NCBI GenBank assembly: GCA_000002435.2
Contig: CM018793.1
Length of the DNA: 64,000 bases
Direction: 5' to 3' (one strand)
Origin: Giardia intestinalis
Taxonomy: Eukaryota
Of this stretch, positions 21,151-45,634 are shown one piece after another. Numbering within the stretch: the stretch's first letter is position 1; every line of letters starts with the position of its first letter. The translations under genes and the position numbers were made by a program. The notes beneath the pieces were generated by a model that worked only from the letters and a program-made list of their open reading frames with translations, was not told the DNA's origin and did no database searches.

Positions 21151-21751
21151 TTTATTGCAATTTTCAGCAAGTAGCAACGTGATAATTTCCCTGTAATCTA
21201 TCGTTGGTTACTACGCGTGGTCTCCAGGGAGCCACCACTAAAGTGGTTGTACTTGTTGTTTACCCAAAACGTAGCCGAGTCTTACATTCTTCCAGTCAAT
21301 AAGTTTGTCAAAATAAAAGCACAACCCTGAAACGTACCGGCCTACTTACAAGCGCGTGCATAATGTGGTCGACGGAGAGCATATGAAGCATAGCTGATGT
21401 CTCCATGCGCGGATCTCTGCTTCGGCGTTAACTAATAACAGCCCCGTACTAAATGAAGGGTGGCCTACTTAACTCTACCAAGGCCAAGATAGCGACATAT
21501 CTCAGATTGGATTTCAGGTCGGAGAGCCGCCGGCGCCGTAGAGCCTGCGGCTAGCTTCTGTAGTGCTGCCTCTCCGAACTATGGGGCACAAGCTGGAGCT
21601 AGGATCCTTATGCACGACAGTTGTCCGTACTTCACCGCAAGATCGAGAGCCGATTGGTCATTCTCATCAACCAAGCCCAGCTCGTAGGGGACGAGATACT
21701 TGACTATGTTTGGATGATCCCACGCCGCAGCGTGCATTAGCGCTGTCCAGC

Positions 21752-25846: not shown

Positions 25847-27040
25847 CTAGAACATGTCATCTATCATATCTAGCATATTGTTGTCATGTAGCTCATCATT
25901 GTGGTCCAGCTCGATCAACTCCTTAGTTGTCTTGGCCTTTTTCTGGGCATAGCTCGGCAGAATATCTCCATGTGCATACGGATTGCCCCCATTGAGCAAA
26001 TCTAGGTTGAGATCTGTTGCCCGAGTCGCTCGCTGAAGGGCGTTCCGAGCTACACTAAGTCCCTCTGTACTGGCATCATCACCTCCCACGCCTGTAGTCC
26101 CAACGAAACTTGAGGACGCAGAAGCAGCAGCTGTTGTAGGGCATGTGTTGACAAACCACGGGTGCCGGAGACAATCCTGGGCACTGAGACGCTTATTTTG
26201 ATCAAACTCAAACATACGGGAGAGAAGGTTGATGCAGTCTTCCGTGACATTGGGGAATAGATATCGGAGTTTCTCCTGCCTAGACTGCGTAGCGCGCGGA
26301 AACTTGTATCCTATTCGCTCAGCCAATGCATATCCTGCAGGCCAATCCTCTCGCGTAGGTGACCCTAGTGTCGAGGTGATCAGATTGAGCATATCTATAT
26401 CGTTAGCCCCCGGGAACAGAGGCTTCATCAGCAGTATCTCGCAGAGAATGCACGCACATGCCCATATATCGTTCTTTGCGCTGTAGCTTGAATCTTTAAG
26501 GAAAAGCTCCACTGCTCTGTACCATCTTGTTCCCACGTAGACTGTATGTGGAGGACGCTCCAAGAGGGACTTGGCACATCCGAGATCCGCTATCTTGACG
26601 CATCGTGTCCCAGTACCGTCGTCCGAAACAAGAATATTCTCACACTTAAGGTCTCTGTGCATGTAATTATTGCGGTGGATATGCTCCAAGCCTTCTAGGA
26701 TCTGCCTAACTAGGTCCTTTGCTACTAGCTCACTTATCTTGATGCCCGCAGAGCGCTGCTGAACAACGAAGTCGAACAGGTTTCCCGAGTTTATGTACTC
26801 GAAGACAAAATAGAGATCTTCCTTTTGCCGCACGACCTCCATCAGTTTTACGATGTTAGGATGCTCCTTCATTCTAATCAAGGACTTAACCTCCTTGAGA
26901 GTGACACACTCTGACCATGATTTATATTTCTGCTTCATATGCTTGATGGCAACAAGGGTTCCCTTTTTGTTTTCACGCGCTTTGTAAACTGTTCCATAGT
27001 TTCCAGAGCCGAGCTCCGTGATTACAGTGTAGTTTTCCAT
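25847..27040 (-). CDS. CMGC Ser/Thr kinase of the MAK/ICK/LF4 (RCK) family
   Basis: GSGNYGTVYKA, VAIK, KYKSWSECVTLKEVKSL (MAK: KFYSWDECMNLREVKSL), HRDLKCEN, DLG, the T-x-Y loop HTVYVGTRWYRAVE (MAK: YTDYVSTRWYRAPE) and LFPGANDID...LGSPTREDWP. Confidence 0.8.
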   Translation of the reverse strand: MENYTVITELGSGNYGTVYKARENKKGTLVAIKHMKQKYKSWSECVTLKEVKSLIRMKEHPNIVKLMEVVRQKEDLYFVFEYINSGNLFDFVVQQRSAGIKISELVAKDLVRQILEGLEHIHRNNYMHRDLKCENILVSDDGTGTRCVKIADLGCAKSLLERPPHTVYVGTRWYRAVELFLKDSSYSAKNDIWACACILCEILLMKPLFPGANDIDMLNLITSTLGSPTREDWPAGYALAERIGYKFPRATQSRQEKLRYLFPNVTEDCINLLSRMFEFDQNKRLSAQDCLRHPWFVNTCPTTAAASASSSFVGTTGVGGDDASTEGLSVARNALQRATRATDLNLDLLNGGNPYAHGDILPSYAQKKAKTTKELIELDHNDELHDNNMLDMIDDMF

Positions 27041-29176: not shown

Positions 29177-32100
29177 ATGGCTCAATCTGTCCGGGTCAAT
29201 AGCCGCGGGGAGAGCCTGAAAGCGATTGATAAACGACTTACGACTCTCCTAAATTCGGGGTACGAGTCGTTTCAGCGCTCTCTCATAATTATCGTGGGGG
29301 ATGGGGGGCTTTATCAAGTCCCTAATTTATTTAGCATCCTGAAGATGACAAGGACCTCGCAGCTTTCTATCATGTGGTGTTATGATGAGATGCCGAAGCT
29401 TTCATCGAACAAGCGGAAACGCAACAAGGAGTTCCGACAACTTAAAAACCGTGGAGAGCTGCAAGAAGAAGAACTGTCCGTAGAGGCCCAGTTCTATGCT
29501 AATACAAATATACGCTACTTGCACTATCGAGACACAGAGCTGGCCTTGGGAACTACAGTCGACATGCTTATTCTCCAAGATTTTAAGGCCCTCACACCAA
29601 ATATCATTGGCCAGACCGTTGAGTGTGTGCGCGGCGGCGGGCTTATCCTGTTCTTACTCAATAATATGCATGACCTTTCTCAGCTCCACGCAGTAGTGAT
29701 GAATTTCCACTCACGCTTTTCAAACATCAATAATCGTGAGGTGTCAAATGACTTGCATATTAAGGCACGCTTTAACTCTAGATTTATTGCATTGCTGGAG
29801 TATCTCCCACGATTTCTGCTTGTTAATGACACGCTTGAGGTGATACAGATCACCGAGGGTATTCAGAATCTGATGACAAATTTGAGTGCACAAGATGGCA
29901 GCGTTGAAAAGCGTGTTGCTGCTTTCACGGCCTATAAAAACGAACATAAGTCGTCTTCACTACTCGCAAAAACGTTCATATCTCTCTGTGCTACGCTAGA
30001 GCAGGCTAAACTTGTTATCCAGGTCCTTGAAATGTTGGATAATGTGGATAGGATACGCAAACTAGCTGACAAGAATGCCATGCTCGAAAAGGAGCCTGTT
30101 GAACGTGATGGCAAAGGGCCACGGGAGCCATCCCGCAAGCGATACTTTGTGCGCGAGAAAGAGACGTATACTCGAGAGGATATCGCAGAAAGTAGTGTTG
30201 ACCAGGATGTTGACGCATCACTAGAAGAGCAGAACGCGGGCCACGAGCTGCTTCAGACCCTCACTCAAAATGCCAATGCGTTGGCGACTGCGACGCGTTT
30301 CCCCATCTGCTCACTTATTGCGGCCAGAGGACGTGGGAAGTCAGCATCGTTAGGCTTGATTGTGGCTTTGATGATTTTCCAGGGGTACAACCATGTTCTC
30401 ATCTCTGCTCCAAATCCCATCAATGTCCAGACCGTGTTCGAATTCTGTATTATCGGCCTCAAAGCTCTTGATTATCAAGAAGCACGGGATTACACTGTAA
30501 GACGTGCGGGCCCAAAGGCAACCGACCCTATCATTGAACTTCGAATCACACGCAAGGTAAAGCAAGTTATTGCGTATATAATGCCGTCCACATTGGCTAC
30601 TTACTGCCAAGCCAACGAAAGAGCATCAAGCTCTATATTGAATTTCATTGACGCCATTCTATTGGACGAGTGTGCAGCGATACCTTTAAAGTTAGTGAGA
30701 CAGATTGTGGACAACGTTGAGGCAAATATGCTCTGCTTTATCTCCAGTACTTGCTATGGATATGAAGCATCGGGACGTGCACTGTCTCTGAAACTCCTTC
30801 ACGACCTTGAAAGAAGCGGCTCTAAGCGAGGACAGGGGCTTGTGAAATTGTCGCTGAACGAACCCATACGTTATGCCCCCAATGATAGCATCGAAAAGTG
30901 GGTTAACCAGCTTCTTTGTCTGGACCAGGTGAATGGGCTGGTAACGTCTCTTGAAGAAGGCCCCGAAATCGCTGCGTCATTTCCACAGCCTCAGTCGTGC
31001 ACCTTATACCGCGTCAACAAGGATGCCCTATTCTCTGGGCTTCCGCAATCCGAATTATTTTTGCAGACCATCTGGAGCATATTTTCTGCTTCGCACTATA
31101 AGAATTCTCCCAACGACCTCATATTGCTCTCCGACAACCCTCTGCACGAGATTTTTGTCCTGTGCCCTCCAATCACAGACTCTAAGCGAATACCAACTGT
31201 ATTGTGTGCATGTCAAATCTGCTACGAAGGAAAACTGAAGCAGAACATCGTCAAGGAGGCGCTGAGCCAGCAGAAGCGCCTAGATGGTGACATGATTGCA
31301 TGGCTCCTCTCCCAACAATTCCAAGATGTTAGTTTCTCATCTCTCAGTGGCGCCCGAGTTGTACGCATAGCGACGAATGCTTCGTACATGCGTGGAGGAT
31401 ATGGGTCTCACACTCTAGAACTGCTCTCCTCCTTTTTCAAGGGAGAGCTTCTAAATCCCACCGAAATTAAAAGGTTGGAAGCGAAAAAGAAGGAAAGGAT
31501 AGAGAAGCTTGCTAAGCAGAAGGGAATTAGTATCAATGATGCAAAACAGGAGATTGAAGCCCTTACTCCAGCCCTTCTCCAGAACTGTGGCACAGTGTAT
31601 CCGTCCGATCTCACGTGGCTCGGCGTAGGATTTGGGATTACCCTCGACTTGCTAAACTTCTGGAGGAAAAATCAGTATCTTCCAGTGTACATCCGGCAGA
31701 CGCGCAATGAGACAACCGGGGAACACACCTGCCTTATGGTCCGTAGCTTAAAGGAAAATCCATTCATCAACAACTTTGCAACTAGTTTCCGTAGCAGATT
31801 TCTACGCCTCTTGCGCTATGATTTTGCAGAACTCCCTATTGAAATTGCCTTTAAGGTCAGCTGGCCTACTAATACCGTGGCGTTGGCCCACGATGCAGAT
31901 CAAGTAGCAATACGAGCTGCCCTAACAAAGCAAGACGTGGTTCGCCTTCGAGGCTTTGTTCGGCACCAGCTCGACTTCATGGCTGTTCGGGATTTGGTGC
32001 CAATTCTTGCAGAGTTGATTTTCACTGAGAAGCTGTCTCCAGTATCTCTCTCACATGCCAGTGCACGGATTTTCCTTGGAATAGGGCTAATGAACATGCG

Positions 32101-32254
32101 GCAAATTGATGTGGCGCAGCAATTGGGCCTTGTTTCAGATGTGGCATTCAGTCAAGTGGAGTCTATCTTTACTAAAACAGTAGAGGTCCTTCTTCGCATT
32201 CTGGAGCCGCTCGTTGGCCTGGGAACAGAGCTGGGAGCTGGAGCTAGTAAATAA
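29177..32254 (+). CDS. NAT10: RNA cytidine N4-acetyltransferase NAT10/Kre33 (helicase-like P-loop plus GNAT domain)
   Basis: DKRLTTLLNSGYESFQRSLIIIVGDGG (NAT10 N-terminus), DMLILQDFKALTPNIIGQTVECVRGGGLILFLL, Walker A ARGRGKSASLGL, IDAILLDECAAIPL, and the GNAT motif RIATNASYMRGGYGS. The track ORF starts at 29093, overlapping the upstream gene. The conserved N-terminus begins at ATG 29177, preceded by aattaattgcaaaattaaaactgac. Confidence 0.9.
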   Translation: MAQSVRVNSRGESLKAIDKRLTTLLNSGYESFQRSLIIIVGDGGLYQVPNLFSILKMTRTSQLSIMWCYDEMPKLSSNKRKRNKEFRQLKNRGELQEEELSVEAQFYANTNIRYLHYRDTELALGTTVDMLILQDFKALTPNIIGQTVECVRGGGLILFLLNNMHDLSQLHAVVMNFHSRFSNINNREVSNDLHIKARFNSRFIALLEYLPRFLLVNDTLEVIQITEGIQNLMTNLSAQDGSVEKRVAAFTAYKNEHKSSSLLAKTFISLCATLEQAKLVIQVLEMLDNVDRIRKLADKNAMLEKEPVERDGKGPREPSRKRYFVREKETYTREDIAESSVDQDVDASLEEQNAGHELLQTLTQNANALATATRFPICSLIAARGRGKSASLGLIVALMIFQGYNHVLISAPNPINVQTVFEFCIIGLKALDYQEARDYTVRRAGPKATDPIIELRITRKVKQVIAYIMPSTLATYCQANERASSSILNFIDAILLDECAAIPLKLVRQIVDNVEANMLCFISSTCYGYEASGRALSLKLLHDLERSGSKRGQGLVKLSLNEPIRYAPNDSIEKWVNQLLCLDQVNGLVTSLEEGPEIAASFPQPQSCTLYRVNKDALFSGLPQSELFLQTIWSIFSASHYKNSPNDLILLSDNPLHEIFVLCPPITDSKRIPTVLCACQICYEGKLKQNIVKEALSQQKRLDGDMIAWLLSQQFQDVSFSSLSGARVVRIATNASYMRGGYGSHTLELLSSFFKGELLNPTEIKRLEAKKKERIEKLAKQKGISINDAKQEIEALTPALLQNCGTVYPSDLTWLGVGFGITLDLLNFWRKNQYLPVYIRQTRNETTGEHTCLMVRSLKENPFINNFATSFRSRFLRLLRYDFAELPIEIAFKVSWPTNTVALAHDADQVAIRAALTKQDVVRLRGFVRHQLDFMAVRDLVPILAELIFTEKLSPVSLSHASARIFLGIGLMNMRQIDVAQQLGLVSDVAFSQVESIFTKTVEVLLRILEPLVGLGTELGAGASK

Positions 32255-32281: not shown

Positions 32282-34282
32282 ATGGTAACGGCAGAACTTC
32301 TCTTTGATGCTAACTTTGAGTCCGGGAACCTCTCTACAACTGAACGCATAGACGATACAGAGTACAACGTTTTTATCAAGCCGGACTTCAACCTGAAGGT
32401 GCGCTTTTGGTTTTACTTTAGAGTGGCTAACATAACACCGAAATTGCCGTACATCTTTCACGTCCTTAGCTTTTCCAAAGGAAAGACCACCTTCTTGTCG
32501 GAGCAAACACCCCTAGTTCGGTCAACATCCCGCAACAAATGGGAGCGGATCCCCCGGAACCAGTGTTTTTACTATGCATCATCCAAGCATAAGTGCTACA
32601 CTAACAACCCTGTGCTCAGTTTTGTTTTCCAGTTTGACAAGATAGAGGACTACTTCTTTGCGTTTTCTTATCCCTTTACCTATTCTATGTTAACTAAGTT
32701 TAATAGCAGATTGATCAACCATAAGCTTCCGTTTATCCGGCTCTTCAACATTGGCAAAACGTATAATGGAAATGACTTCCCCATTCTAGTGATCAATCAA
32801 GACATTGAACGAATTCTCAATTGTTCTCCAGTATCTACCGCCGCTGCCAACGCATCCCTCCCCTCTGAGGTTCGAGATAAGCGGATCGTTTGGGTCTCTG
32901 CTCGAGTGCACCCTGGAGAGGTCCCTTCCTCGTATATTCTCCACGGCCTGCTAGAGTTTCTGATCTCTAATAGTCCAGTTGCGAAGTTTCTGCGCAGCAA
33001 AATCGTCTTTGTTCTTATACCAATGGTCAACATCGATGGCGTGATGGCTGGGTTCTATCGCGGCAGTGCAGCAGGCGTGGACTTAAACCGGACATACTAC
33101 AACCCGGACTCAAAACAGCATCCGGAAACATACATGATGAGATGTCTCTACTATGAGCTTATCGTACGTGGAAATATGCGGCCGTACAAAGCTCTTACAG
33201 GGGATGCACGTGGCGGCTCAGCCTCTCCCATGTTAGCTAACTCTCAAGAGCCCTCAGAAGAACTGGATTTATCGTTTGTTAGTCCACAGAAACTTGAGTC
33301 TGTTTTTGAAACCAATCCTCTTAATAGAATACTTTTAAAGAAGTCTATTGTACTAGATTTATACAACAATCAAACCGAGAAGCTTTTTAATACAGGTGCC
33401 AGTCCTACCGGGTTTGCAGCTAGTGTGAGCAATACTGATTTTGCTGGCAATCCTGTTAATTCTACCAGTAATAGCACCCCAACAGACAGATCACTGGAGC
33501 CGGTGCCTGAGACTTCAGAGACATCCTACGATACCGACATAGCCTCAATTTCTAGGACCAGTTCTCGATCTAATTACGGCACGGGGTATCCTGAGCAGCT
33601 ACTCTATAAGGTTTCCGAGATTTCTAATCAAGAGGCAGGAGACCTTCCTCCATCTGGCAAACAGCGAAGCACGAAAAATCTGGCGCCCATAATTAGTAAG
33701 CCTTCAGTCCCCTACCAGTTTCCTGCGCAACTTACCAACTTCTTATCGCAGGGATACAACCTTGATTTTGTTATCGATCTTCATTCCCATAGCAACATAT
33801 CTGGGGGCTTTCTGTTCGTAAACCCAGACTGTTATGCATTCAACAAGGTGAAGCGCACATCCTGCGAACTTGTCTTTCCGCTGATGCTTGCACAGAACTG
33901 TGCCACCTTCGGCGCGCTAAATAAATCCTTTAAAAGCTCCAAGGATAGGAGAGAGGGTAGCCTTCGGCGAGCGTTCATGAATCTTGGCAAGGCCTACGCC
34001 TTTGACAATTCTCCCTACGTATACTGCTTAGAGGTATCCAACAGTCATGGACCAGATCCAGCCAAAGCAGGAAAGCTCCAACAAGTTCAGTTAATTGGCA
34101 ACGAACCGAACAATGATAATGTTGAAAGCGATGACCTTTCTGCTTCTATTGACACAGATGAGACAGATAGGATCCTCTATACTCCAAGCTCATGGATGAA
34201 CATAGGTGAGAAGTTATGCCAGACGTTGTATGAGTTGTATTCGGCAAATGACCGAGAGCATGCCGGTATTGGCGTTGCCTAG
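32282..34282 (+). CDS. Cytosolic carboxypeptidase (CCP/Nna1-like M14 metallocarboxypeptidase; tubulin deglutamylase family)
   Basis: CCP N-domain FESGNL, Zn-binding ARVHPGEVPSS, PMVNIDGV, GVDLNRTY, second His DLHSHSNISGGFLF. Confidence 0.85.
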   Translation: MVTAELLFDANFESGNLSTTERIDDTEYNVFIKPDFNLKVRFWFYFRVANITPKLPYIFHVLSFSKGKTTFLSEQTPLVRSTSRNKWERIPRNQCFYYASSKHKCYTNNPVLSFVFQFDKIEDYFFAFSYPFTYSMLTKFNSRLINHKLPFIRLFNIGKTYNGNDFPILVINQDIERILNCSPVSTAAANASLPSEVRDKRIVWVSARVHPGEVPSSYILHGLLEFLISNSPVAKFLRSKIVFVLIPMVNIDGVMAGFYRGSAAGVDLNRTYYNPDSKQHPETYMMRCLYYELIVRGNMRPYKALTGDARGGSASPMLANSQEPSEELDLSFVSPQKLESVFETNPLNRILLKKSIVLDLYNNQTEKLFNTGASPTGFAASVSNTDFAGNPVNSTSNSTPTDRSLEPVPETSETSYDTDIASISRTSSRSNYGTGYPEQLLYKVSEISNQEAGDLPPSGKQRSTKNLAPIISKPSVPYQFPAQLTNFLSQGYNLDFVIDLHSHSNISGGFLFVNPDCYAFNKVKRTSCELVFPLMLAQNCATFGALNKSFKSSKDRREGSLRRAFMNLGKAYAFDNSPYVYCLEVSNSHGPDPAKAGKLQQVQLIGNEPNNDNVESDDLSASIDTDETDRILYTPSSWMNIGEKLCQTLYELYSANDREHAGIGVA

Positions 34283-34306
34283 AACACGCTAGCAAGGTCG
34301 ATGAAC

Positions 34307-34313
34307 AGTAAAC
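34307..34313 (+). terminator. Putative polyadenylation signal AGTAAAC, 25 nt after the CCP stop
   Basis: Exact motif. Confidence 0.55.
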
Positions 34314-34361
34314 TATCTGCAACACGGGAGCAAGCGGCATCTCCCATGCTAACAAAAAAAC

Positions 34362-36680
34362 ATGACAGATAACTTCGAGGATTATGGGGAGTTCTCGACC
34401 ACCTCAACCGATGAACAGGTTGAGCAGACATCCCCAGAAAGAGAAACAGTGGAGCGAGCTGCCAAGCCTACTAAGAAGCGTCGGATAAGGGTATGCTTAG
34501 ACTATTGCAAGTATAGTGTGATACATGAAATATGCGAACGGCGAGGCTGGCGACAGGTAGGGGAGTCTGATGACTGGAATTTGCTGTGGAGCGACAGATC
34601 AGTCACTGCGGAAAGAGTGATGAGGATGAAAGTCTACCAACGGATTAACCACTTTCCAAGTATGTATGAAATAACGCGGAAAGATACACTTGCTAAGAAC
34701 CTTAACAAGATACGGAAGCTCATGCCAGACGAATACGACTTTTATCCTATGTCCTTCTACCTACCAGCAGACTCAGCGGAAATGCGGCAGTATATAAGTA
34801 AGGCACCCAAAAAGTCAGTATATATAACGAAGCCAGTTGCATCTTGCCAGGGGCGGGGTATACGCCTCTTCAAAAACATTGACTCTATCGACACCACTGA
34901 GCCACAGGTGGTTCAAGAGTATGTTTCAAAGCCATACTTAATAGGCGGACTAAAGTTTGATCTACGGATGTACGTATTGGTTGTCTCTGTAGCTCCTATT
35001 CTCCGCCTTCTAGTGTATGAAGATGGAATGGCTCGCTTTGCCACCGAGCCATATGCCGAGCCAACAGTCAAGAATATGAAGAAGACTTATATGCACCTGA
35101 CCAACTATGCAATTAACAAGCGCAACGAGAACTTTATCTTTAACGCAGAAGAGGACGAGGACAATGTCGGATCCAAGTGGGGCCTCCAGGCCGTCTGGGA
35201 CAAGATTGTTGAAGATGGTGGAGATCTGCAGAAGATAAGGGAGGATATAAATGACATATTTGTTAAAACAATCCTTGCTGTGCTTCCAACTCTCCAGCAC
35301 ACCTATATGTCGTGTAGGCCTGCTGAAGTGAAAGCAGAGCCAGACGCCGGCAGCATGAATCAGCAATACTTTGGTTCTAACTGCTATGAAGTCTTAGGGT
35401 TTGATATAATGATCGATAGCCTTTTCAAGCCGTGGCTTATTGAAGTTAACCACAGCCCGTCCTTTACGTGCGACACGCCTTTAGACATGCGCATAAAAGA
35501 AACACTAATTGATGCCGTTCTTGACGTAATCAACGTTACTAATGGTGATAGAAAGCAGTTCGTGCGCTTAGAGCGACAGAAGCACATGAAGCGACTTTAC
35601 GGGAAAACAATGGCACGTCCACCACAAATACAGAGTAAGGTGCCAAGGCCACCACAGAAGAAGGGAGCAGAGGAGGCACAGAAAAAGGTATCTACCTTCA
35701 AAACGTATGAAGAGCACATCCAAAAGTGTCTCAAAAGGCTTCCATTTGTGCAAATATATCCCTTGCCAAAAGGGTGTCCAGACCCATATTATTCTATTCT
35801 GCAACGAATACGGAACAAAGGGTCTGTGGATCTTCCCGATCGGCTGCAAAATGTTCTTGCTAAAGGCGCGCCGTCTCAAACTAGCCTATTACAGGCTACG
35901 GGAAAGCGAACAGCATCTGCAACCCCAGCAGCACCGGCGAAGGTACAACCAAGACAGATATCTAATAATATTGTTCCTGTCGCTGACATGCACTCATCTT
36001 CCAGTGTTCCTGTCCTAGAGCGGCAGATTCGTCCGGAATCACCACTGCGAAGGTCTCCGGAACCAGGCCTACATGCTCCCCCTTATTCTACTGCGAGCGC
36101 CACTACGGGTACGGGTGTCAACGCGAATACAGGCTCCATTGGGGCACCAACTGGGCTGCCAAACGACGCCCCCGAATCAGAACCATTTGACAGTTTACTA
36201 AAGCGTGCGCTCTTGGAATTTGAGTACGGCATAGCAAGTCGATCCATCATATTTAAAGGCATCCAAGCCCCTGTGCTATTGCCTCAGGGCCCACCCAGAA
36301 ATGATAAAATTGAGAAAACTAGAGATGCTGAGCTACTGTCTAAACTGCGCGCTATGCTCAAGTTCGGCGTTCGAGAATATGCCGAAAGCATCATCCAGGC
36401 TGGGCAAAAATCAACACAGGTCACGTTATCAAAACAACAACAGCCGCCACCGCAGCCAGTAAAACAAGATATAAATCCTATGCTAATGGCAAACAGGTCC
36501 AAATCGTCAGGCCAGTTTCATAGTGCAGGAATCAGGTCGGTGCCAGGGCACCCGGATATCCATACTGCTTCTGTTTCTCGCGGAAATTACTATGGTGTGG
36601 GTACAGGGCGCATTATTAGGGCATATGATGAAGCACCACTGCCTTCTGTCATGTATAAAGGCCTCTTTGCCAAGAAATAA
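34362..36680 (+). CDS. Tubulin tyrosine ligase-like protein (TTLL polyglutamylase family)
   Basis: TTL domain: RINHFPSMYEITRKD, ATP-grasp motif YITKPVASCQGRGIRLF, QEYVSKPYLIGGLKFDLRMYVLV, HLTNYAINK, CYEVLGFDIMIDSLFKPWLIEVNHSPSF. Upstream is A-rich (aacaaaaaaacATG). Confidence 0.85.
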   Translation: MTDNFEDYGEFSTTSTDEQVEQTSPERETVERAAKPTKKRRIRVCLDYCKYSVIHEICERRGWRQVGESDDWNLLWSDRSVTAERVMRMKVYQRINHFPSMYEITRKDTLAKNLNKIRKLMPDEYDFYPMSFYLPADSAEMRQYISKAPKKSVYITKPVASCQGRGIRLFKNIDSIDTTEPQVVQEYVSKPYLIGGLKFDLRMYVLVVSVAPILRLLVYEDGMARFATEPYAEPTVKNMKKTYMHLTNYAINKRNENFIFNAEEDEDNVGSKWGLQAVWDKIVEDGGDLQKIREDINDIFVKTILAVLPTLQHTYMSCRPAEVKAEPDAGSMNQQYFGSNCYEVLGFDIMIDSLFKPWLIEVNHSPSFTCDTPLDMRIKETLIDAVLDVINVTNGDRKQFVRLERQKHMKRLYGKTMARPPQIQSKVPRPPQKKGAEEAQKKVSTFKTYEEHIQKCLKRLPFVQIYPLPKGCPDPYYSILQRIRNKGSVDLPDRLQNVLAKGAPSQTSLLQATGKRTASATPAAPAKVQPRQISNNIVPVADMHSSSSVPVLERQIRPESPLRRSPEPGLHAPPYSTASATTGTGVNANTGSIGAPTGLPNDAPESEPFDSLLKRALLEFEYGIASRSIIFKGIQAPVLLPQGPPRNDKIEKTRDAELLSKLRAMLKFGVREYAESIIQAGQKSTQVTLSKQQQPPPQPVKQDINPMLMANRSKSSGQFHSAGIRSVPGHPDIHTASVSRGNYYGVGTGRIIRAYDEAPLPSVMYKGLFAKK

Positions 36681-36691
36681 CCCTGTAGTCC

Positions 36692-39631
36692 CTACTCATT
36701 ACTTTCTTCGTCAAAGAGAATGGGTTGCGTGGGTCCTTCAGTATTGAGAAGACGCTTTAGGACCTCATGGCCATATACTTCACATATGAGGAGTCTTAAC
36801 TCCTCGAGAAGGTTCTGACAGATCACTCTAAGTCTAGGGATGTTGATATTTGCTCCATAAGCTCTCCATCTAGTTCTATCTGTCCTGATCAAAGAAGTCA
36901 TGAGCCACGCACGCATCATTCTGTATGTGATTATCACGTTTGGGCAAGGGTTATTGTATAGAATATTGTCAAGTGTTTGGGACTCCAGTAGAGCGTGGCC
37001 ATAAAGATTCCATTCTGCTCCATTTAAACTTGCGACGCAAAAGTGGCTCCGCAAAGATAGTTCTGCAAGATAGTTCATTATATTTTCCCAAGGAAAACGC
37101 ATTTCGAACGTTCCGCATTTGCTCATTGATGCAGGAGTAGAAAATGGAGGGGAGCGCTTACTATACTTCTGATACATTGCTTTCAGTTCCTCCTCAGTGC
37201 AGTTTTTGAAGGCAGTGTCTATATGCTCTTTGCAATATTGTTGGAAATAATATGTGATCTTTTGACGAGAAAATCTAATTCCTCTATCGGCAAAGATGTT
37301 TCTGATTTCTTCAGATACAGTAAATTCCCTCTCAATTTCATGCTTATGGATCTTCAGATAAAGAAGAGGGCCAAGAAGGGCAGAACGCAGGATGTCTCCT
37401 GCAGAGTCTTCGCTATGAAACTGTGCGGTATCGAGCATGGTAAGAGCGGTTGTTATTATAGAAATTGTGGGAGGTTGTAGGGCTTCTATTCGCATAGTGA
37501 ATAGGAAAGAGATAATATTAACCCAATTGGTAGCCACTGTGTGCAGCAGTCGAGACTCGGTATTGCTTTGGATCCCAGTCATAAACGTGGAGGATGAAGA
37601 AGTGGACAGGTCCAGTCCAATCCAGTTTGTTCTGCTACACTTGAATACTTGCCGATATTCTTCTACCACTTCAGCAACAGTCTGGACGCAGCTTCTAAGG
37701 CAGGAAGAAGAAAGATTGACACTGTGGGTCAAACATTCAAGAAGCAACTGTGCATTGGAAGGATTAGAATCAAATTTCTTCTGGATAAATTTCGTGTTAC
37801 GATAGATAAGAGCGCCTAGAATATCCAATGCGCTAATTGTTTCCTTCTCAAAGTCTGGAATGGAAAGATCGAGCCAAGAGCGATGAAATTTAAGCACATT
37901 TATAACATAGTCAAAGATCTTATACTTAGAAAAATAGCTCTTTTCAAATGAGAGCGCACCCTTTATGAGGCATGCAATTATAATGTATATCCACTGCCGC
38001 CTTGTGTCACTTAGTGGCATGTATATAAAAAGATCGATTAACGTGGATATGAATCCCTTAGAAGTGAGTGGGTGCGATCCGCAACCAAAGGTGTCATAGC
38101 ATGGTGGCATGGAAAAACGCATTATGCTAAGTTCTGTCGGAGAAAGAAGATATGATACCGGAAATTGCTGTGTGGAGTCAGAAGGTGATTGCACAAGGAA
38201 AAACCGAAATACAAGCTTCAAGAAAATACTATGTGTAGCCACAATATGAGTATTAGTAGACATTTCTTGGTATTCATACATAGCAGTCGAAATCGCGTCT
38301 GGAGGGACACTAATGCCAGTATTCCTTTTTGCCACCCACGGTCGTGCTCTAATATACTCGCGTACCAATGGAAAGATGTTGTATTCCTGGATTCCGTTGA
38401 TAGCCTTGCATGCTATTGTGGCCAGCTGTGAAGAGAAATACTCTGAAAGAGCATAAAAGAAGTACCTTATTATGCCTGCTGTTAACAGATGCTGTTTGTG
38501 CATGGACCCATACTCGCCCGAAAGAAGCATTTTGAGGAATGTGTTGAAAAAGACAGATGTGTATTGATTTTTACGCAGCTCAAGGCAACACTTGATCATG
38601 CTGGCGCCTGCAAACGGAGATTCTTCCTTCTGTGATTCTGTACTTCTGTCCTCCACGTTCTTAAATCCTCTAACAAGGAGAATGTCACGGAGAAGAAGAA
38701 CTCCTGGTGGGGATGATTTGAACCATGCAATACTGCTTTTCTTTGTTAGATAGGTCTGGACAATGGGGGCATTGAACAAGTCACTATTCGTTTCGCAAAA
38801 GATTGAGGCAGCTGCGACGCCAAGATATCGAATATGGAAGCTTGCATATTGGAGTCCAAGAAAAATAGCAAGATAGGAGTCTGTGAGTATTCTATTTTCC
38901 GTGTTTAGGTCTGGCATGGGAGTCTGCTTACCTGTCAAGCAGTATCCCAAGGCTGCGTTGGTTAAATCGTAAGACATAGAGTCCGTTGACAAGTGCCCAA
39001 TAATTCCGCATGCATTGATCATGCGCATAATGGGATATCTCTGTGCCCGGCCCAGGATCATGTCTCTAAGAAGCAAAGGATTAATGATATCCTTTATTCG
39101 AAGCGGGGCAGAAAGCTGAGTAATGATGATATGAATCAAGTAAATGATTTTCCCAAGCATCTCCACGTGCAGTGCATCAAATGTAAAGTAAAACCATGTA
39201 ATAGCATGCATAAATTCCCTATTCAGCGAATATCGCTGAAATCTATTCCGATGCCCTGCCTGAGAAAGACGCGTGATCATAATGTAGAGCATATCTGTTT
39301 GCTGTAGCATCTGCTCATAGCACTCCTTGAGAGGCAAGTCCTTATTAGAATAAGTGCTGGCGATATGTCGACACATGTGCTGATCTAAATCATAATACAC
39401 AATCGTGTCAGCTGAAAGATCATGGACATCTCTGCGGAGCGTTTTAAGTTGCGTATCTGGAATGTTAGGGGATAATATGGCATTAATAGCATCAAAGTTA
39501 TGCTCCCCATAAGTCTTCATCATAGCGACATTGAGCAGCTGCAGTGTGTCTAGAGGCGTAGTTATCGATCCACGCTCCCACTCCAGCTGTTGCGCCAACA
39601 GAAGCTGCGAGGCTGTTTCGCCATTCGACAT
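36692..39631 (-). CDS. Hypothetical 979-aa protein (no motif recognised; helical-repeat-like composition)
   Basis: Uninterrupted ORF with an ATG start 11 bp from the divergent neighbour's ATG. Confidence 0.55.
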   Translation of the reverse strand: MSNGETASQLLLAQQLEWERGSITTPLDTLQLLNVAMMKTYGEHNFDAINAILSPNIPDTQLKTLRRDVHDLSADTIVYYDLDQHMCRHIASTYSNKDLPLKECYEQMLQQTDMLYIMITRLSQAGHRNRFQRYSLNREFMHAITWFYFTFDALHVEMLGKIIYLIHIIITQLSAPLRIKDIINPLLLRDMILGRAQRYPIMRMINACGIIGHLSTDSMSYDLTNAALGYCLTGKQTPMPDLNTENRILTDSYLAIFLGLQYASFHIRYLGVAAASIFCETNSDLFNAPIVQTYLTKKSSIAWFKSSPPGVLLLRDILLVRGFKNVEDRSTESQKEESPFAGASMIKCCLELRKNQYTSVFFNTFLKMLLSGEYGSMHKQHLLTAGIIRYFFYALSEYFSSQLATIACKAINGIQEYNIFPLVREYIRARPWVAKRNTGISVPPDAISTAMYEYQEMSTNTHIVATHSIFLKLVFRFFLVQSPSDSTQQFPVSYLLSPTELSIMRFSMPPCYDTFGCGSHPLTSKGFISTLIDLFIYMPLSDTRRQWIYIIIACLIKGALSFEKSYFSKYKIFDYVINVLKFHRSWLDLSIPDFEKETISALDILGALIYRNTKFIQKKFDSNPSNAQLLLECLTHSVNLSSSCLRSCVQTVAEVVEEYRQVFKCSRTNWIGLDLSTSSSSTFMTGIQSNTESRLLHTVATNWVNIISFLFTMRIEALQPPTISIITTALTMLDTAQFHSEDSAGDILRSALLGPLLYLKIHKHEIEREFTVSEEIRNIFADRGIRFSRQKITYYFQQYCKEHIDTAFKNCTEEELKAMYQKYSKRSPPFSTPASMSKCGTFEMRFPWENIMNYLAELSLRSHFCVASLNGAEWNLYGHALLESQTLDNILYNNPCPNVIITYRMMRAWLMTSLIRTDRTRWRAYGANINIPRLRVICQNLLEELRLLICEVYGHEVLKRLLNTEGPTQPILFDEESNE

Positions 39632-40894: not shown

Positions 40895-43258
40895 ATGCCT
40901 CGGCGCCCGCCTGCCCTCTTCGTCGCCGCGGCGGCCCCGTGCTCTTCGCTGTGTCTGGCGCGGACGGGTGCCTGCGTCGTGGAGGGGTCCTGGGCACCGC
41001 TGTGGACCTCGGACACTGCCGCAGCCAAGCGTCTCCTTTGCTCGCTACAAAAACAAACAAGCCCCGACCAGCCCTCCGTGCCGTCAGTCTTTGCTAAGGT
41101 ACTCCGGCAGGAAGTGGACCCTACGACAGGAGTGTTCTCACTATGGACTCAACGATCAACCACCTGCACGTACAACCAAGATCCCACTGGTGCGCTGCTC
41201 ACCTCGCTATGGGCCGCCTACACTCTTAGTAAAGCTATTGCGCCCTTAGCGACCAACAGAGCCTCGCACATAATGAGCTTTTTAGATGTTGTTCTAGGAT
41301 GTATGCAGCAGTCTTCGACCGGAAGTTTCAAGCTAGTATTGTCGGCCACTATGCTTGGTAAAGTACTGTCTGCATCAGATGTTCAGGGCTCTGGTTCAGT
41401 AACTTGCTGGGTAGCCTGTGCGGAAAAGGCTATAGCACAAATTGCCGAAGCCCTTCAGGTATTCATGTGTCGATGTTACTCTCTTGACAACTGGATAGTT
41501 ACGTGCGCTCTTTTCTTGAAGCCTTGTGAGCAGCCAATGCCCAGCCATAGCTCTAAGATAACAACCGTCTCCAGCATAAACTTCTTCCTTTCATCGTTGC
41601 TCACTGTCGTCCAAGAGCTGATAGCGATTCGGCTTGTACCCGCTAAGCTACAGACTCTTGTGGCTGCGGTTTGCAATAGTATAACAGTTCCTGTCAATGA
41701 CTTATTCGAGATGCTTCACAAAGAATACCAACAAGTAGTGTATGGCATTGGTGTTCCAATCGTTAAAGTGTCTTTCTTGGAGCAACAAAGGCGCTTATTC
41801 AACTCTTCGCCAGGTCTCCTTACGATAGAGCCGCTGAATTTATGGAACCTAGTGTACTATGACAACGGCGATACCATACTTATTCATGGACTTAGATATA
41901 GATCGATTGGAGTAGAGACGCTAGACAGCTATTTACATCTGGCAGGAGCTCAGAATAATAGTGGTGAGACGGCTCTTATGGTTGCTATTAAAACAAGGCA
42001 ATATGACCTTCTATCAACTCTCATTCCACTTGAGGGAGGCCTCACAGACTGCTATGGAAATACAGCTATCACTTTGATTTTATCCTCTGGAGATGACAAT
42101 CTACTTCCATATGTAGCAGCGATACTACGTTATGAAAGCGAAGCTCTAAGAAGACTCAACTTTACAGACCTAATGCTTGAGGTCTTCTCTGAGCCTTGTA
42201 CGAAGCTAACAAGACTTGATCAGACTCGCCAACAAACGGTCCATGGAGACACCGCATTGATGCTCGCTGTCCTCGTGGACCACCTATCCGCAGTACAAGC
42301 ACTAGCTCCACTCGAAGCCGGAATGCGGAACAAAAAGCTCAAACAAGCAGGTACAATTGCTCTCGAACTGGACAGGAGAGAGTGTATTGAATTGCTTATT
42401 CCATACGAGGATATTAGGGACGCTCAATCAAATACTGCTCTACATAGGGCTGTGATGGAAGCGCAAGGCGATGATATTGCTTCTGAGCTAAGCAAGTACC
42501 ACCAGATGGCAGGGAAATATAATGCTTCCGGATATACAGCATTAATGGAAGCTGCTCGACGCGGAAATACTAAGGCGGTCGTGGCCTTAGTGAAGATTGA
42601 GGGTGGAATGACAACCCCTAAAACAATTCCCATTACTCTTCTATCTCCTGGGATCAGTACTAAGACCTATCAAACCATCACTAGGGTTACGGCTTTTATG
42701 ATCTGTCTTATACAGTTATCGTCTTGCAATCCAGAATATGAAACAATTTTATATATTTTATCCAAAAGAGAGGGAGATATTGCGTGCTCTGATGGGATCA
42801 CACCTCTCATGCTACTGGGGATCCTGAACAAACCTATCTTTTACCCATTTTGTCAAGCAACTTTAGGAAGGGTCGATAACAAAGGAAAAACTTCTCTCAT
42901 ATATGCAGTGGAGCATGCCGCCTGGGATCTTGTTCTGCTTTTGCTTGAACACGAGGGAGGTCTTCAGGACTCCAGTGGCTGGACTGCTTTGCTTTATGCT
43001 GTTCGGGACAATACCATAATAGATAGTAGAGCGATAGCAGAGCTTGCTCGGCGGGAGGGGAATCTAATCAACCGGTGGGGTTGGTCTGCACTAACGTATG
43101 CTGTCCATAACAACAATGTTGATCTCATTCGCTTACTGCTTCCATTTAGTACGCAAGAGCAGATCGTCCAAGCACAGAGACACATCCACAGTATAAAAAG
43201 ATCCGATTCATCGAAAGAACATCTATCAAGTTTATTCGCCGTACTCGACGTCATGTAG
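40895..43258 (+). CDS. Ankyrin-repeat protein (protein 21.1-like); true start uncertain
   Basis: From about residue 330 onward there are many ankyrin repeats (GETALMVAI, GNTAITLIL, GDTALMLAV, GYTALMEAA, GITPLMLLG, GKTSLIYAV, GWTALLYAV, GWSALTYAV). The first about 125 codons are GC-rich low-complexity sequence beginning 3 nt after the tRNA. The in-frame ATG at 41273 is an alternative start. Confidence 0.7.
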   Translation: MPRRPPALFVAAAAPCSSLCLARTGACVVEGSWAPLWTSDTAAAKRLLCSLQKQTSPDQPSVPSVFAKVLRQEVDPTTGVFSLWTQRSTTCTYNQDPTGALLTSLWAAYTLSKAIAPLATNRASHIMSFLDVVLGCMQQSSTGSFKLVLSATMLGKVLSASDVQGSGSVTCWVACAEKAIAQIAEALQVFMCRCYSLDNWIVTCALFLKPCEQPMPSHSSKITTVSSINFFLSSLLTVVQELIAIRLVPAKLQTLVAAVCNSITVPVNDLFEMLHKEYQQVVYGIGVPIVKVSFLEQQRRLFNSSPGLLTIEPLNLWNLVYYDNGDTILIHGLRYRSIGVETLDSYLHLAGAQNNSGETALMVAIKTRQYDLLSTLIPLEGGLTDCYGNTAITLILSSGDDNLLPYVAAILRYESEALRRLNFTDLMLEVFSEPCTKLTRLDQTRQQTVHGDTALMLAVLVDHLSAVQALAPLEAGMRNKKLKQAGTIALELDRRECIELLIPYEDIRDAQSNTALHRAVMEAQGDDIASELSKYHQMAGKYNASGYTALMEAARRGNTKAVVALVKIEGGMTTPKTIPITLLSPGISTKTYQTITRVTAFMICLIQLSSCNPEYETILYILSKREGDIACSDGITPLMLLGILNKPIFYPFCQATLGRVDNKGKTSLIYAVEHAAWDLVLLLLEHEGGLQDSSGWTALLYAVRDNTIIDSRAIAELARREGNLINRWGWSALTYAVHNNNVDLIRLLLPFSTQEQIVQAQRHIHSIKRSDSSKEHLSSLFAVLDVM

Positions 43259-45634
43259 TGTTACTGCCAACTCATCTACTTGTGCCTGAAGCTCTTCGTT
43301 CCTTCTAGTTAGGTTGGATATTTCATTCACGATCTTTCTGATGTTAGTGTTAAGGTAGGCTATTTCGCTGTTTGTCTGTTCTATCTCACTTTCTACTTGC
43401 TTCTTCTCCTCCGTCAAAGCGCTACCTGGCGTGGCTGGTCGCACACTTTTGCGAATTTGTGCATTGCTTGCCCGTAAAAGTTCCAACGCTTGCTGTAGCC
43501 CAGCAACTTCCACCTCTGCCTGCTTAAGTTTAGCTGAATATTCCTCGTAGCGCGCTTGTAGGTCTGCATTCTTTTTGCCAAAGTTTATGATTGCATCCGA
43601 TTGTGCCGTGCGAGGGTCGGCCTCATCCATGGGTTTACCAGAAGCCGCACAGGTGAGAGAGCCGACGCGATCGGTCAAAATATCACATCGTATTTTCAGT
43701 TTCTCGATGTATATTCTCCTCTTCTTGAGCTCCAGACGAACTGCCGACAGATCCTGTGTCAATAGACGAATCTCTTGTGCCAGCAAACTTTTCACTGTTT
43801 CTAGCTCCTTGGAACGTTTCACGTTTCCGATTCTTATTTGTTCTTTTCGATTTGTAAGACCGAAAAGGATAGTAGTCCTACTCTTGTACTTTTCCAACAG
43901 TTCATCTCGCTTGATCTTCATGCTATCTAATTGTAAGAGCATGTCGGCTTTTCTATTGTTAAGCTTTTTCAGAGCATCTGCCGCAGTATTTGATGATAGC
44001 AAGTTTTCATGCAAATCAGAGTCCAATTTGTCCCGCTTCTGCTTCAGATCTGCTAGAGTGCGATTTAATCGCTCAACTTCACTCCTGACAGATCCTGTTT
44101 GTTGTTTTACTAATTTTGCGGTCCTTAGTTCTGTCTCCAATTGCTGCGTCAGACTTGCAATATTTCTCTTTAAGACTATGAGCTCCTCTAATGAATGATC
44201 GCCTCGGACAATGCTAAGCTTACGAGTCAACGCCTGAATCTCGTAATCTGCATTGTATATATGCTTGCGTTGTTGTTGTATCTGCTTCTCAAATTCTTGA
44301 ATTCTTGACTCTAATCCCTTGATGCTGCTTTGAAGCCCAGAAATGTCATTCTTTTCATTTGCTTCTTGTCGCTTGAACTCTGCTAGCTTCTGACCGATTT
44401 CCTGGAGCTTCTTTGTGGTGTCTTGGCTCTCCTTCCTCTTAAACTCGTACTCCTTTTCCACCGCATCTACCATTTTTGTCATGTACGCTGTGGTCTCTTC
44501 GAGCGTCAATGCTTTTGCTTTCATCTCCTCCTTAACAGCAGCGAGGAGCTCCAACCGAGCGTCTAAACGCTGACTATCTTTAACTCGGTTTTCGTAGCTC
44601 TGCTGCATACTCTCTAGGGTAGCCTGCTTAGCAGATATATCCCTTTGTGCAGAAGAAAGCGCCGACCGCTGAATTAGAATTTCACCGTTCATTGCATCAA
44701 GCTCCTTTTCAGCAACAACAAGGGCTGCAGATGCGGTATTTGTTTCTCGCTCCATAGATTCCAGCTCACTGTTGGCGGCGTTCCTGGCTCGGATAACCTC
44801 TTCGAGCTCTTGCTGAGCTCGTCTATCAGTAGCCCGCAGGTTTTCGAGGTCTAGCCGAGAGCTTTCATATCGCTCGTTGAGCATTGCTTCTTGTGTATCT
44901 TTGCTTTCTAATAAAACAACAGCCTGCTGAAATTGACCCATGGCAACTCGCCGAGATTCTTGAAGACGGCTGAATGTAATTGCCGCCTTGTCCAATGAGA
45001 CCTGAGCAGTCATAGTCTCGTTGACCTCTGTCTTAAGAAGATCAGTGAGAGATGTGATGACCTCGTGTTGGCGTCGCAAGGCTTGCTCTAAGTCTCCCCG
45101 GCGCTTTTCGTCTATAGCTGTATATTTCTGAAGTGTAAACGCGTCGTCGCTCTTTTGCTCCGACGCAAGGTGCCATTCAGCACGCTCGTCCTCAAGCCAT
45201 TGGGCGTCCTTTTGGAGCTCTGCGAGTCGTGTGTGTTGTTTGAGAAGATTTGTCTGGCCAACCTGCCTGCGCTCCTCCACAGTATTCTTCATGCCTTCGC
45301 ACTGTCTTATCTTGGCATTCATGCGTCCGAGGTCTCTTTCGACCAGAGTTGTCAGGTGCTTCTCGGCCTTCACTTCCTGGTCTCTAGCATTCGCTAGCGA
45401 TTGCGCATGGTTCAGTTCCTGGACGACAGCCTCTGAGTGCTTCTTCATCGCCAACGTGCGAGACTCTAGCTGAGAGAGCTCGTCTATCAGGGCCGTGATT
45501 TCGGTTGAAACCTCCTTCAGATCCTCATGTCTTTGCATGTTCTCCTCGTTAGCAAACGCTGGCATTGCAAGCTCGATCGGCCTCCATATGGTCGTTAAGA
45601 CCTCCCGAAGATTAACATCTTTCACAACAGACAT
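43232..45634 (-). CDS. CCDC39: CCDC39-like axonemal coiled-coil protein (96-nm ruler / FAP59 family)
   Basis: N-terminus AMPAFANEENMQRHEDL (human CCDC39: AIPVANEENKLLEDQL), DDAFTLQKYTAIDEKR (CCDC39: DSDALTLQKYAQQDDNK), QVSLDKAAITFSRLQ (CCDC39: QLELDKAAQDFRKI). It is 800 aa of continuous coiled coil. Confidence 0.7.
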   Translation of the reverse strand: MSVVKDVNLREVLTTIWRPIELAMPAFANEENMQRHEDLKEVSTEITALIDELSQLESRTLAMKKHSEAVVQELNHAQSLANARDQEVKAEKHLTTLVERDLGRMNAKIRQCEGMKNTVEERRQVGQTNLLKQHTRLAELQKDAQWLEDERAEWHLASEQKSDDAFTLQKYTAIDEKRRGDLEQALRRQHEVITSLTDLLKTEVNETMTAQVSLDKAAITFSRLQESRRVAMGQFQQAVVLLESKDTQEAMLNERYESSRLDLENLRATDRRAQQELEEVIRARNAANSELESMERETNTASAALVVAEKELDAMNGEILIQRSALSSAQRDISAKQATLESMQQSYENRVKDSQRLDARLELLAAVKEEMKAKALTLEETTAYMTKMVDAVEKEYEFKRKESQDTTKKLQEIGQKLAEFKRQEANEKNDISGLQSSIKGLESRIQEFEKQIQQQRKHIYNADYEIQALTRKLSIVRGDHSLEELIVLKRNIASLTQQLETELRTAKLVKQQTGSVRSEVERLNRTLADLKQKRDKLDSDLHENLLSSNTAADALKKLNNRKADMLLQLDSMKIKRDELLEKYKSRTTILFGLTNRKEQIRIGNVKRSKELETVKSLLAQEIRLLTQDLSAVRLELKKRRIYIEKLKIRCDILTDRVGSLTCAASGKPMDEADPRTAQSDAIINFGKKNADLQARYEEYSAKLKQAEVEVAGLQQALELLRASNAQIRKSVRPATPGSALTEEKKQVESEIEQTNSEIAYLNTNIRKIVNEISNLTRRNEELQAQVDELAVTLHDVEYGE

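Follow-up and report, generated by a model that had tools for sequence, protein, structure and literature searches.

What keeps a predicted writer and a predicted eraser of the tubulin code side by side in a eukaryotic genome? The question is raised by a 64,000-nucleotide stretch of contig CM018793.1 of Giardia intestinalis (the window), in which a gene for a cytosolic carboxypeptidase (CCP) is followed head-to-tail, on the same strand and after 79 bp, by a gene for a tubulin tyrosine ligase-like (TTLL) glutamylase. A first-pass annotation of the sequence had described this pair, and had proposed that it belongs to a local concentration of flagellar and cytoskeletal regulators that may share chromatin-level or promoter-level control. 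We conclude that these are very probably two separate, monocistronic, intact and already annotated tubulin-code genes, which became neighbours a single time in the Giardia lineage and have stayed so by ordinary microsynteny. The adjacency itself is no evidence of co-regulation.

Identity of the two enzymes

The gene pair is as first described. Both open reading frames (ORFs) and the spacer between them lie exactly where the first-pass annotation had placed them (Table 1), and coordinates, Pfam domains and GenBank matches agree that a CCP-family M14 carboxypeptidase stands beside a TTLL glutamylase. Exact-sequence look-up of the encoded proteins identified the window as G. intestinalis WB and matched four cilium-related proteins in GenBank (XP_001704278.1, XP_001704277.1, XP_001704281.1 and XP_001704272.1). 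The first of these is the CCP, annotated in GenBank and UniProt as “Nuclear ATP/GTP-binding protein,” which is the old Nna1 name for CCPs; the second is the TTLL, annotated in both as “Tubulin tyrosine ligase.” The identifier of the CCP gene, GL50803_17025, comes from the supplementary tables of published transcriptome papers, and that of the TTLL gene, GL50803_95661, was deduced from gene order in an expression table. Both genes are real, already annotated, and known before. In the literature searched we found no paper naming these gene identifiers and no experiment on either protein; all that is new here is that the function of each can be predicted, one as an elongase and the other as a probable deglutamylase of the chain-shortening kind, and both predictions are routine readings of homology.

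The TTLL protein is closest to the enzymes that lengthen polyglutamate chains. Its Pfam TTL domain (1.4e-79) covers positions 4-289 of the 292 in the profile, and its best match among solved structures is TTLL6 (E 2e-97 over residues 2-407, the alignment stopping at residue 407 of the query), with further Protein Data Bank (PDB) matches to TTLL7 (1.5e-80), TTLL11 (1e-50) and TTL (~1e-15). Across eukaryotes the closest named homologues are TTLL6 and TTLL13, with 40-47% identity over the core. In mouse TTLL6, Q180 and H362 specify elongation of alpha-linked chains as opposed to branch initiation, position 180 being Gln in elongases and Arg in initiases and H362 being common, among elongases, only to TTLL6 and TTLL13, while K283 and K377 are essential (Mahalingan et al., bioRxiv 10.1101/2020.06.07.139295). 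Residue-level alignment revealed that the Giardia protein keeps C179, Q180, R182, R219, K283, H362 and K377, with the elongase signature carried by “CQGRGI” (Q180) and “EVNHSPSF” (H362). Since the elongase and active-site residues of TTLL6 are unchanged, we predict that GL50803_95661 is a TTLL6/13-type elongase of alpha-linked polyglutamate chains on tubulin tails. It resembles mammalian TTLL6 and TTLL13 in its TTL core and in all seven of the active-site and specificity residues compared, but differs from them in its C-terminal half (amino acids ~420-772), which is of low complexity and can be aligned only among diplomonads.

The CCP protein has the layout of a cytosolic carboxypeptidase (M14D), with an N-domain (Pepdidase_M14_N, PF18027, 8e-10) followed by the catalytic domain (Peptidase_M14, PF00246, 5e-15). 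The FESGNL motif lies at amino acids 12-17; H210 and E213 (the HxxE zinc site), R260, N269 and R270 (the NR pair), and H501 and H503 (DLHSHS) are invariant, and the catalytic Glu, E584, is kept at a nearly invariant alignment position. NIDG stands in place of NPDG. By these motifs both the CCP and the TTLL look catalytically intact, and the idea that either is a pseudoenzyme was discarded on the same residues.

Placing the CCP within its family is harder. Its best PDB match is human CCP5, a result that carries no information, since the six PDB matches returned include no other eukaryotic CCP. Membership of the CCP5 subfamily was rejected, as the CCP5 clade of a neighbour-joining (NJ) tree (monophyletic in 189 of 200 bootstraps) excludes the Giardia CCPs; these instead join a clade of short CCPs (408-797 amino acids), apart from the CCP5 and CCP1 clades, in 197 of 200 NJ bootstraps. 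One member of this clade carries the automatic UniRef name CCP6. The tree was built without vertebrate CCP6; a profile search from an alignment of 12 CCP sequences, aimed at vertebrate CCP6 and at CCPs of other diplomonads, did not bring in vertebrate CCP6 and added almost nothing to the sequences already collected. We tentatively call GL50803_17025 CCP6-like, a label taken from that one automatic name, and consider it probably a chain-shortening deglutamylase, as predicted from homology, rather than a “nuclear ATP/GTP-binding protein.” If the CCP6 label is right, the enzyme would shorten alpha-linked chains, the reverse of the reaction predicted for the neighbouring elongase.

Several further features of the Giardia CCPs were seen. 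In GL50803_17025 a Ser/Thr/Pro-rich low-complexity insert of ~200 amino acids (residues ~293-490; window 33158-33751) separates the substrate-binding N-R segment from the segment with the DLHSHS zinc ligands. The insert is present but poorly conserved in G. muris and shorter in the second Giardia paralogue; human CCP5 (AGBL5) has an insert of its own at the same site. The NJ tree resolves two Giardia CCP paralogues, each found in both G. intestinalis and G. muris, and the duplication is older than the split of these species. The second paralogue, in the same clade, is GL50803_17014 in WB and protein P0008 in G. muris (locus L001, 10001-11608). A third WB gene annotated “Nuclear ATP/GTP-binding protein” is GL50803_8025.

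Transcript ends and expression

Giardia genes are generally transcribed one by one, with AT-rich initiators, very short 5′ untranslated regions (UTRs) and a polyadenylation signal of consensus AGTRAAY. The spacer between the CCP and the TTLL contains both ends that this organization calls for. A match to the consensus, AGTAAAC, lies 25 nt after the CCP stop codon, and an A-rich stretch (taacaaaaaaac) abuts the TTLL ATG; given these features of Giardia genes, the latter is likely the initiator or core promoter of the TTLL. The published 3′ UTR of the CCP is 38 nt in isolates WB, AS175 and P15, and 49 nt in GS (Franzen 2013 Table S1), which puts the poly(A) site at ~34320, so that the transcript ends inside the spacer, ~41 nt before the TTLL ATG. 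This mapping is direct evidence against a shared transcript as the main product, and speaks against the co-transcription raised in the first-pass annotation. The pair resembles eukaryotic operons and co-regulated clusters, such as the polycistrons of nematodes and kinetoplastids, in its head-to-tail order on one strand and its very short spacer. It differs in that the single transcript expected of an operon is not what the published 3′ end and the AGTAAAC signal indicate, the mapped poly(A) site lying within the spacer, and in that co-expression is not elevated.

The spacer is also ordinary in length and not conserved in sequence. The median intergenic distance of the genome is 81 bp, next to 79 bp here, and the twelve spacers around the block run from a 27-bp overlap to 148 bp (from ORF coordinates and the annotated start of the upstream gene, which encodes a NAT10-type RNA cytidine acetyltransferase). 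In G. muris and a relative of it the CCP-TTL spacers are 38-39 bp and unrelated in sequence to that of WB, which rules out a conserved regulatory element in the spacer. These two shorter spacers (L003, 9963-10000; L002, 9285-9323) share a palindrome, T6-7 GGG(G)CC A6-8, that is absent from the G. intestinalis spacer, and at L002, the G. muris relative, an AGTGAAC signal overlaps the CCP stop codon. In WB an AGTAAAT signal likewise overlaps the stop codon of NAT10, whose mapped 3′ UTR is only 4 nt, and an ankyrin-protein ORF (40895..43258, +) overlaps the 3′ end of the CCDC39 ORF on the opposite strand by 27 bp (43232-43258); the ORF overlap and the NAT10 3′ UTR illustrate how tightly genes are packed here.

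We compared expression in the encystation series of Rojas-Lopez et al. 2021 (12 stages, 35 samples, log2 counts per million (CPM)), the rows of which are apparently in genome order. The CCP is near-flat, going from 7.4 to 7.1 log2 CPM and to 6.4 in cysts, and the TTLL declines slowly, from 6.55 to 6.19 and to 5.56 in cysts. Their correlation over the 35 samples is r = 0.61, a value that, in a set of 30 local genes, 17% of all pairs and 34% of the adjacent ones equal or surpass, and it falls to r = 0.07 when cyst samples are left out; it is the cyst samples that drive it. Co-expression of the pair does not rise above that of neighbouring genes in general. The TTLL profile lies closer to those of NAT10 and of the hypothetical gene downstream (r = 0.85 each) than to that of the CCP, and the nearby RCK-family kinase, which the first-pass annotation had counted among the genes that may share control, is anti-correlated with both CCP and TTLL (r = -0.70 with the CCP, -0.86 with the TTLL). 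There is no sign of block-level co-regulation in this series, and the proposal of shared chromatin-level or promoter-level control, with the co-expression it would predict, is not borne out.

Gene order in Giardia and its relatives

Within G. intestinalis, assemblages A1, A2, B and E have one and the same gene order between the RCK kinase and CCDC39, as judged from identical spacing of GenBank accessions. In G. muris the order is NAT10, a gene of 630 amino acids, and TTL. No domain is annotated in the 630-amino-acid protein, which tblastn identified as the actual orthologue of the CCP, at 54.5% identity over the full length; between the TTL and the WB TTLL identity is 62%. The same order of NAT10, CCP and TTL is found on a G. 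muris-like contig from a public sequencing run. An apparent loss of the adjacency in G. muris was rejected: the first CCP match there, P0008 at L001, lacks a TTL gene in the 10 kb around it and corresponds by orthology to the second paralogue.

Both flanks of the trio differ between G. muris and WB. The gene that converges on the TTLL in WB has 26-27% identity over ~975 amino acids (tblastn, to L002 and L003) to a G. muris DUF3689 gene. In G. muris (L003, 2210-5020, +) this homologue lies upstream of NAT10 and shares the strand of the trio, and in WB it lies downstream of the TTLL on the opposite strand; a small inversion or transposition has carried it around the three-gene block. In G. muris the 10 kb to each side of the trio contain no RCK kinase gene and no CCDC39 gene. 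The conserved unit is a three-gene block that includes the unrelated NAT10; the wider “flagellar” neighbourhood, which had been put forward as a unit of shared control, is not conserved.

Outside Giardia the adjacency was not seen. We took the TTLL6 orthologue of Spironucleus salmonicida, of Hexamita inflata, of Carpediemonas membranifera and of two uncultured relatives, searched the 10 kb to each side with Giardia, CCP6-like, CCP5 and CCP1 queries under the standard and diplomonad genetic codes, and found no M14 or CCP sequence. A converse search found no TTL gene at 80 metagenomic CCP loci, only 11 of which exceed 6 kb, giving it low power. The adjacency neither goes beyond background synteny nor recurs in the other lineages searched, and is kept only within Giardia, together with NAT10. 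Of the comparisons that the first-pass annotation had proposed, the one with other Giardia assemblages showed conservation, which extends to G. muris; the one with Spironucleus did not. The first-pass annotation had held that lack of adjacency in related diplomonads and uncorrelated expression would make the arrangement a coincidence of a compact genome, and this is largely what was seen.

At some of these loci a different neighbour recurs. A Snf7-domain gene lies directly upstream of the TTLL6 orthologue in Carpediemonas membranifera (L008, 9191-9775), and one to three genes upstream, on the same strand, on two uncultured fornicate-like contigs (L005, 5523-6176; L006, 1383-2081). Snf7-TTLL6 may be an old microsynteny that was lost in Giardia once NAT10-CCP came to lie upstream.

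Retention of a three-gene block between these species is unremarkable. About 60% of genes keep local synteny when G. muris is compared with G. intestinalis, with 3043 orthologues retaining it amid “frequent small-scale rearrangements” (Xu et al. 2020), and at such a background retention of the block is the default outcome. NAT10-CCP-TTLL resembles the ordinary microsynteny blocks of that comparison in its collinearity, short spacers and rearranged flanks, and is set apart solely by the fact that two of the three encode enzymes from opposing families.

We suggest that the locus is best read as follows. The TTLL is predicted to extend the alpha-linked polyglutamate side chains of tubulin tails, the CCP6-like carboxypeptidase is predicted to trim such chains from their C-terminal ends, and the two would plausibly be opposed on axonemal, median-body and ventral-disc microtubules. 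The adjacency would have arisen in the lineage to the genus Giardia as part of the NAT10-CCP-TTLL block and been carried on by local synteny, presumably as a neutral linkage; the CCP transcript would be cleaved and polyadenylated within the 79-bp spacer, and the TTLL would start from its own A-rich initiator just before the ATG. Several points weigh against this reading. The CCP and the TTLL have stayed together since the split of G. muris and G. intestinalis (~55-62% protein identity) despite rearrangement of both flanks, and such retention would also be expected under weak selection for linkage. The pair is nominally unlikely by chance: with 4963 genes, and at least five TTL-annotated and three “Nuclear ATP/GTP-binding protein” genes in published supplements (a name carried by both of the CCPs checked), the expected number of immediately adjacent TTL-CCP pairs is ~ 5 x 3 x 2/4963 = 0.006 per genome, which is not a significance level because the pairing was picked afterwards among ~5000 adjacencies and many possible “functionally related” pairings. 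The expression background is that of 30 local genes in one bulk encystation series, and low-level read-through from the CCP may occur, given that the poly(A) site mapped is a single one.

These points bear most directly on the idea that linkage was selected, a shared chromatin or promoter environment balancing the dosage of writer and eraser and so buffering glutamate chain length on Giardia microtubules. Besides the persistence of the pair in all sampled Giardia while its flanks were rearranged, and the nominal chance expectation, such selection would fit the similar low expression of the two genes and their common drop in cysts; we nonetheless think it unlikely, as their correlation is not above that of neighbouring pairs and vanishes without the cyst samples, the TTLL follows NAT10 and the hypothetical gene beyond it more closely than it follows the CCP, G. 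intestinalis and G. muris have no spacer sequence in common, the adjacency is absent at five other fornicate TTLL6 loci, and most genes retain local synteny anyway. Were linkage functional, it would offer a simple genetic handle on the balance between tubulin glutamylation and deglutamylation, in an organism suited to such study, since a single pool of tubulin supplies its several, very different microtubule organelles. Coupling might instead act through transcription, with read-through from the CCP yielding a bicistronic RNA or occluding the TTLL initiator, so that the eraser is tied to the writer. The TTLL core promoter must indeed lie within or beside the 3′ end of the CCP, and TTLL read counts are ~1.7-fold below those of the CCP. 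Against this, a discrete poly(A) site is mapped 38 nt past the CCP stop codon in three isolates; the two expression profiles show neither a tight correlation nor an anti-correlation, and the same geometry is found in about half of Giardia gene pairs (median 81 bp) and is not specific to this one. We regard such coupling as very improbable. The tandem NAT10-CCP-TTLL could also have been kept because transcription of the eraser couples to the promoter of the writer, fixing the CCP:TTLL ratio and so tuning how long the chains grow on the eight flagella and on the ventral disc; a writer and an eraser linked by selection would be a rarity among eukaryotes, and the idea is a long shot. We found no positive support for selected dosage linkage or for promoter interference.

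The opposition of the two enzymes could also be nominal, one of them acting on a non-tubulin substrate or on another tail or chain type, or being a pseudoenzyme. Mammalian CCPs and TTLLs also act on non-tubulin substrates, and the CCP has its ~200-amino-acid insert and a CCP6 label resting on one database name; as noted, no experiment on either protein was found in the literature searched. Every catalytic residue examined is intact in both enzymes, however, and the TTLL core is 40-47% identical to TTLL6/13 enzymes of many eukaryotes, so that we give this explanation very little weight. Various tubulin modifications and several TTLL homologues have in addition been reported in Giardia, as cited in bioRxiv 10.1101/361105. 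Two enzymes predicted to act in opposite directions on tubulin, brought together once and retained with NAT10 by ordinary microsynteny, remain our preferred account of the locus.

Other genes of the window

The surrounding block had been described as rich in flagellar genes. It does contain genes for an RCK-family kinase, for a CCDC39 homologue and for a NEK-type kinase (Table 1), but the description of the first as “LF4-type” needs correcting. GL50803_6700 belongs to the RCK family by its CMGC kinase domain and a TxY motif in a PP.T.Y..TRWYRAPE context, its activation loop (PPHTVYVGTRWYRAVE) reading TVY versus the TDY of MAK/ICK; it is one of three Giardia RCK genes, and the LF4 “long-flagella” annotation belongs to a different RCK gene, GL50803_14004. 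The kinase is strongly induced in cysts, from ~150 to 1047 fragments per kilobase per million (FPKM), and from 7.6 to 9.7 in log2 CPM. The rest of the block is unrelated to cilia, consisting of a TruD pseudouridine synthase, NAT10, an MFS transporter, two ankyrin proteins and two hypothetical proteins.

Table 1. Positions in the window of the gene pair, the signals in its spacer, and neighbouring genes.
Feature	Position	Strand	Evidence and remarks
CMGC RCK-family kinase, GL50803_6700	25847..27040	-	Pkinase 1.5e-67; source annotation “Kinase, CMGC RCK”
NAT10-type RNA cytidine acetyltransferase, GL50803_14277	29177..32254	+	Pfam, annotated coordinates; ends 27 bp upstream of CCP
CCP (M14D) gene, GL50803_17025, 666 amino acids, tentatively CCP6-like clade	32282..34282	+	ORF, Pfam, exact match XP_001704278.1, motifs, NJ tree
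Intergenic spacer, 79 bp	34283..34361	+	Sequence
AGTAAAC, match to polyadenylation signal consensus AGTRAAY	34307..34313	+	25 nt after CCP stop
A-rich stretch, likely initiator or core promoter of TTLL	34350..34361	+	Sequence; role predicted; abuts TTLL ATG
Predicted TTLL6/13-type tubulin polyglutamylase gene, GL50803_95661, 772 amino acids	34362..36680	+	ORF, Pfam TTL, PDB matches, exact match XP_001704277.1
Hypothetical protein, GL50803_14708 by table order	36692..39631	-	Convergent with TTLL, 11 bp away; homologue of G. muris DUF3689 gene
CCDC39 homologue, GL50803_95653 by table order	43232..45634	-	Pfam CCDC39 2e-44; exact match XP_001704272.1
Kinase with ankyrin repeats, Giardia NEK-type architecture	47730..49523	+	Pfam Pkinase 2e-58 and Ank_2

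Elsewhere in the window, stretches of up to 65% G+C hold a VSP gene and genes for cysteine-rich, EGF-like surface proteins (36-1235, +; 10624-12534, +; 19279-21177, -; 51766-56841, +). An ORF of 1252 amino acids (53026..56784, -) that runs antisense to a cysteine-rich ORF of 1691 amino acids is probably a compositional artefact.

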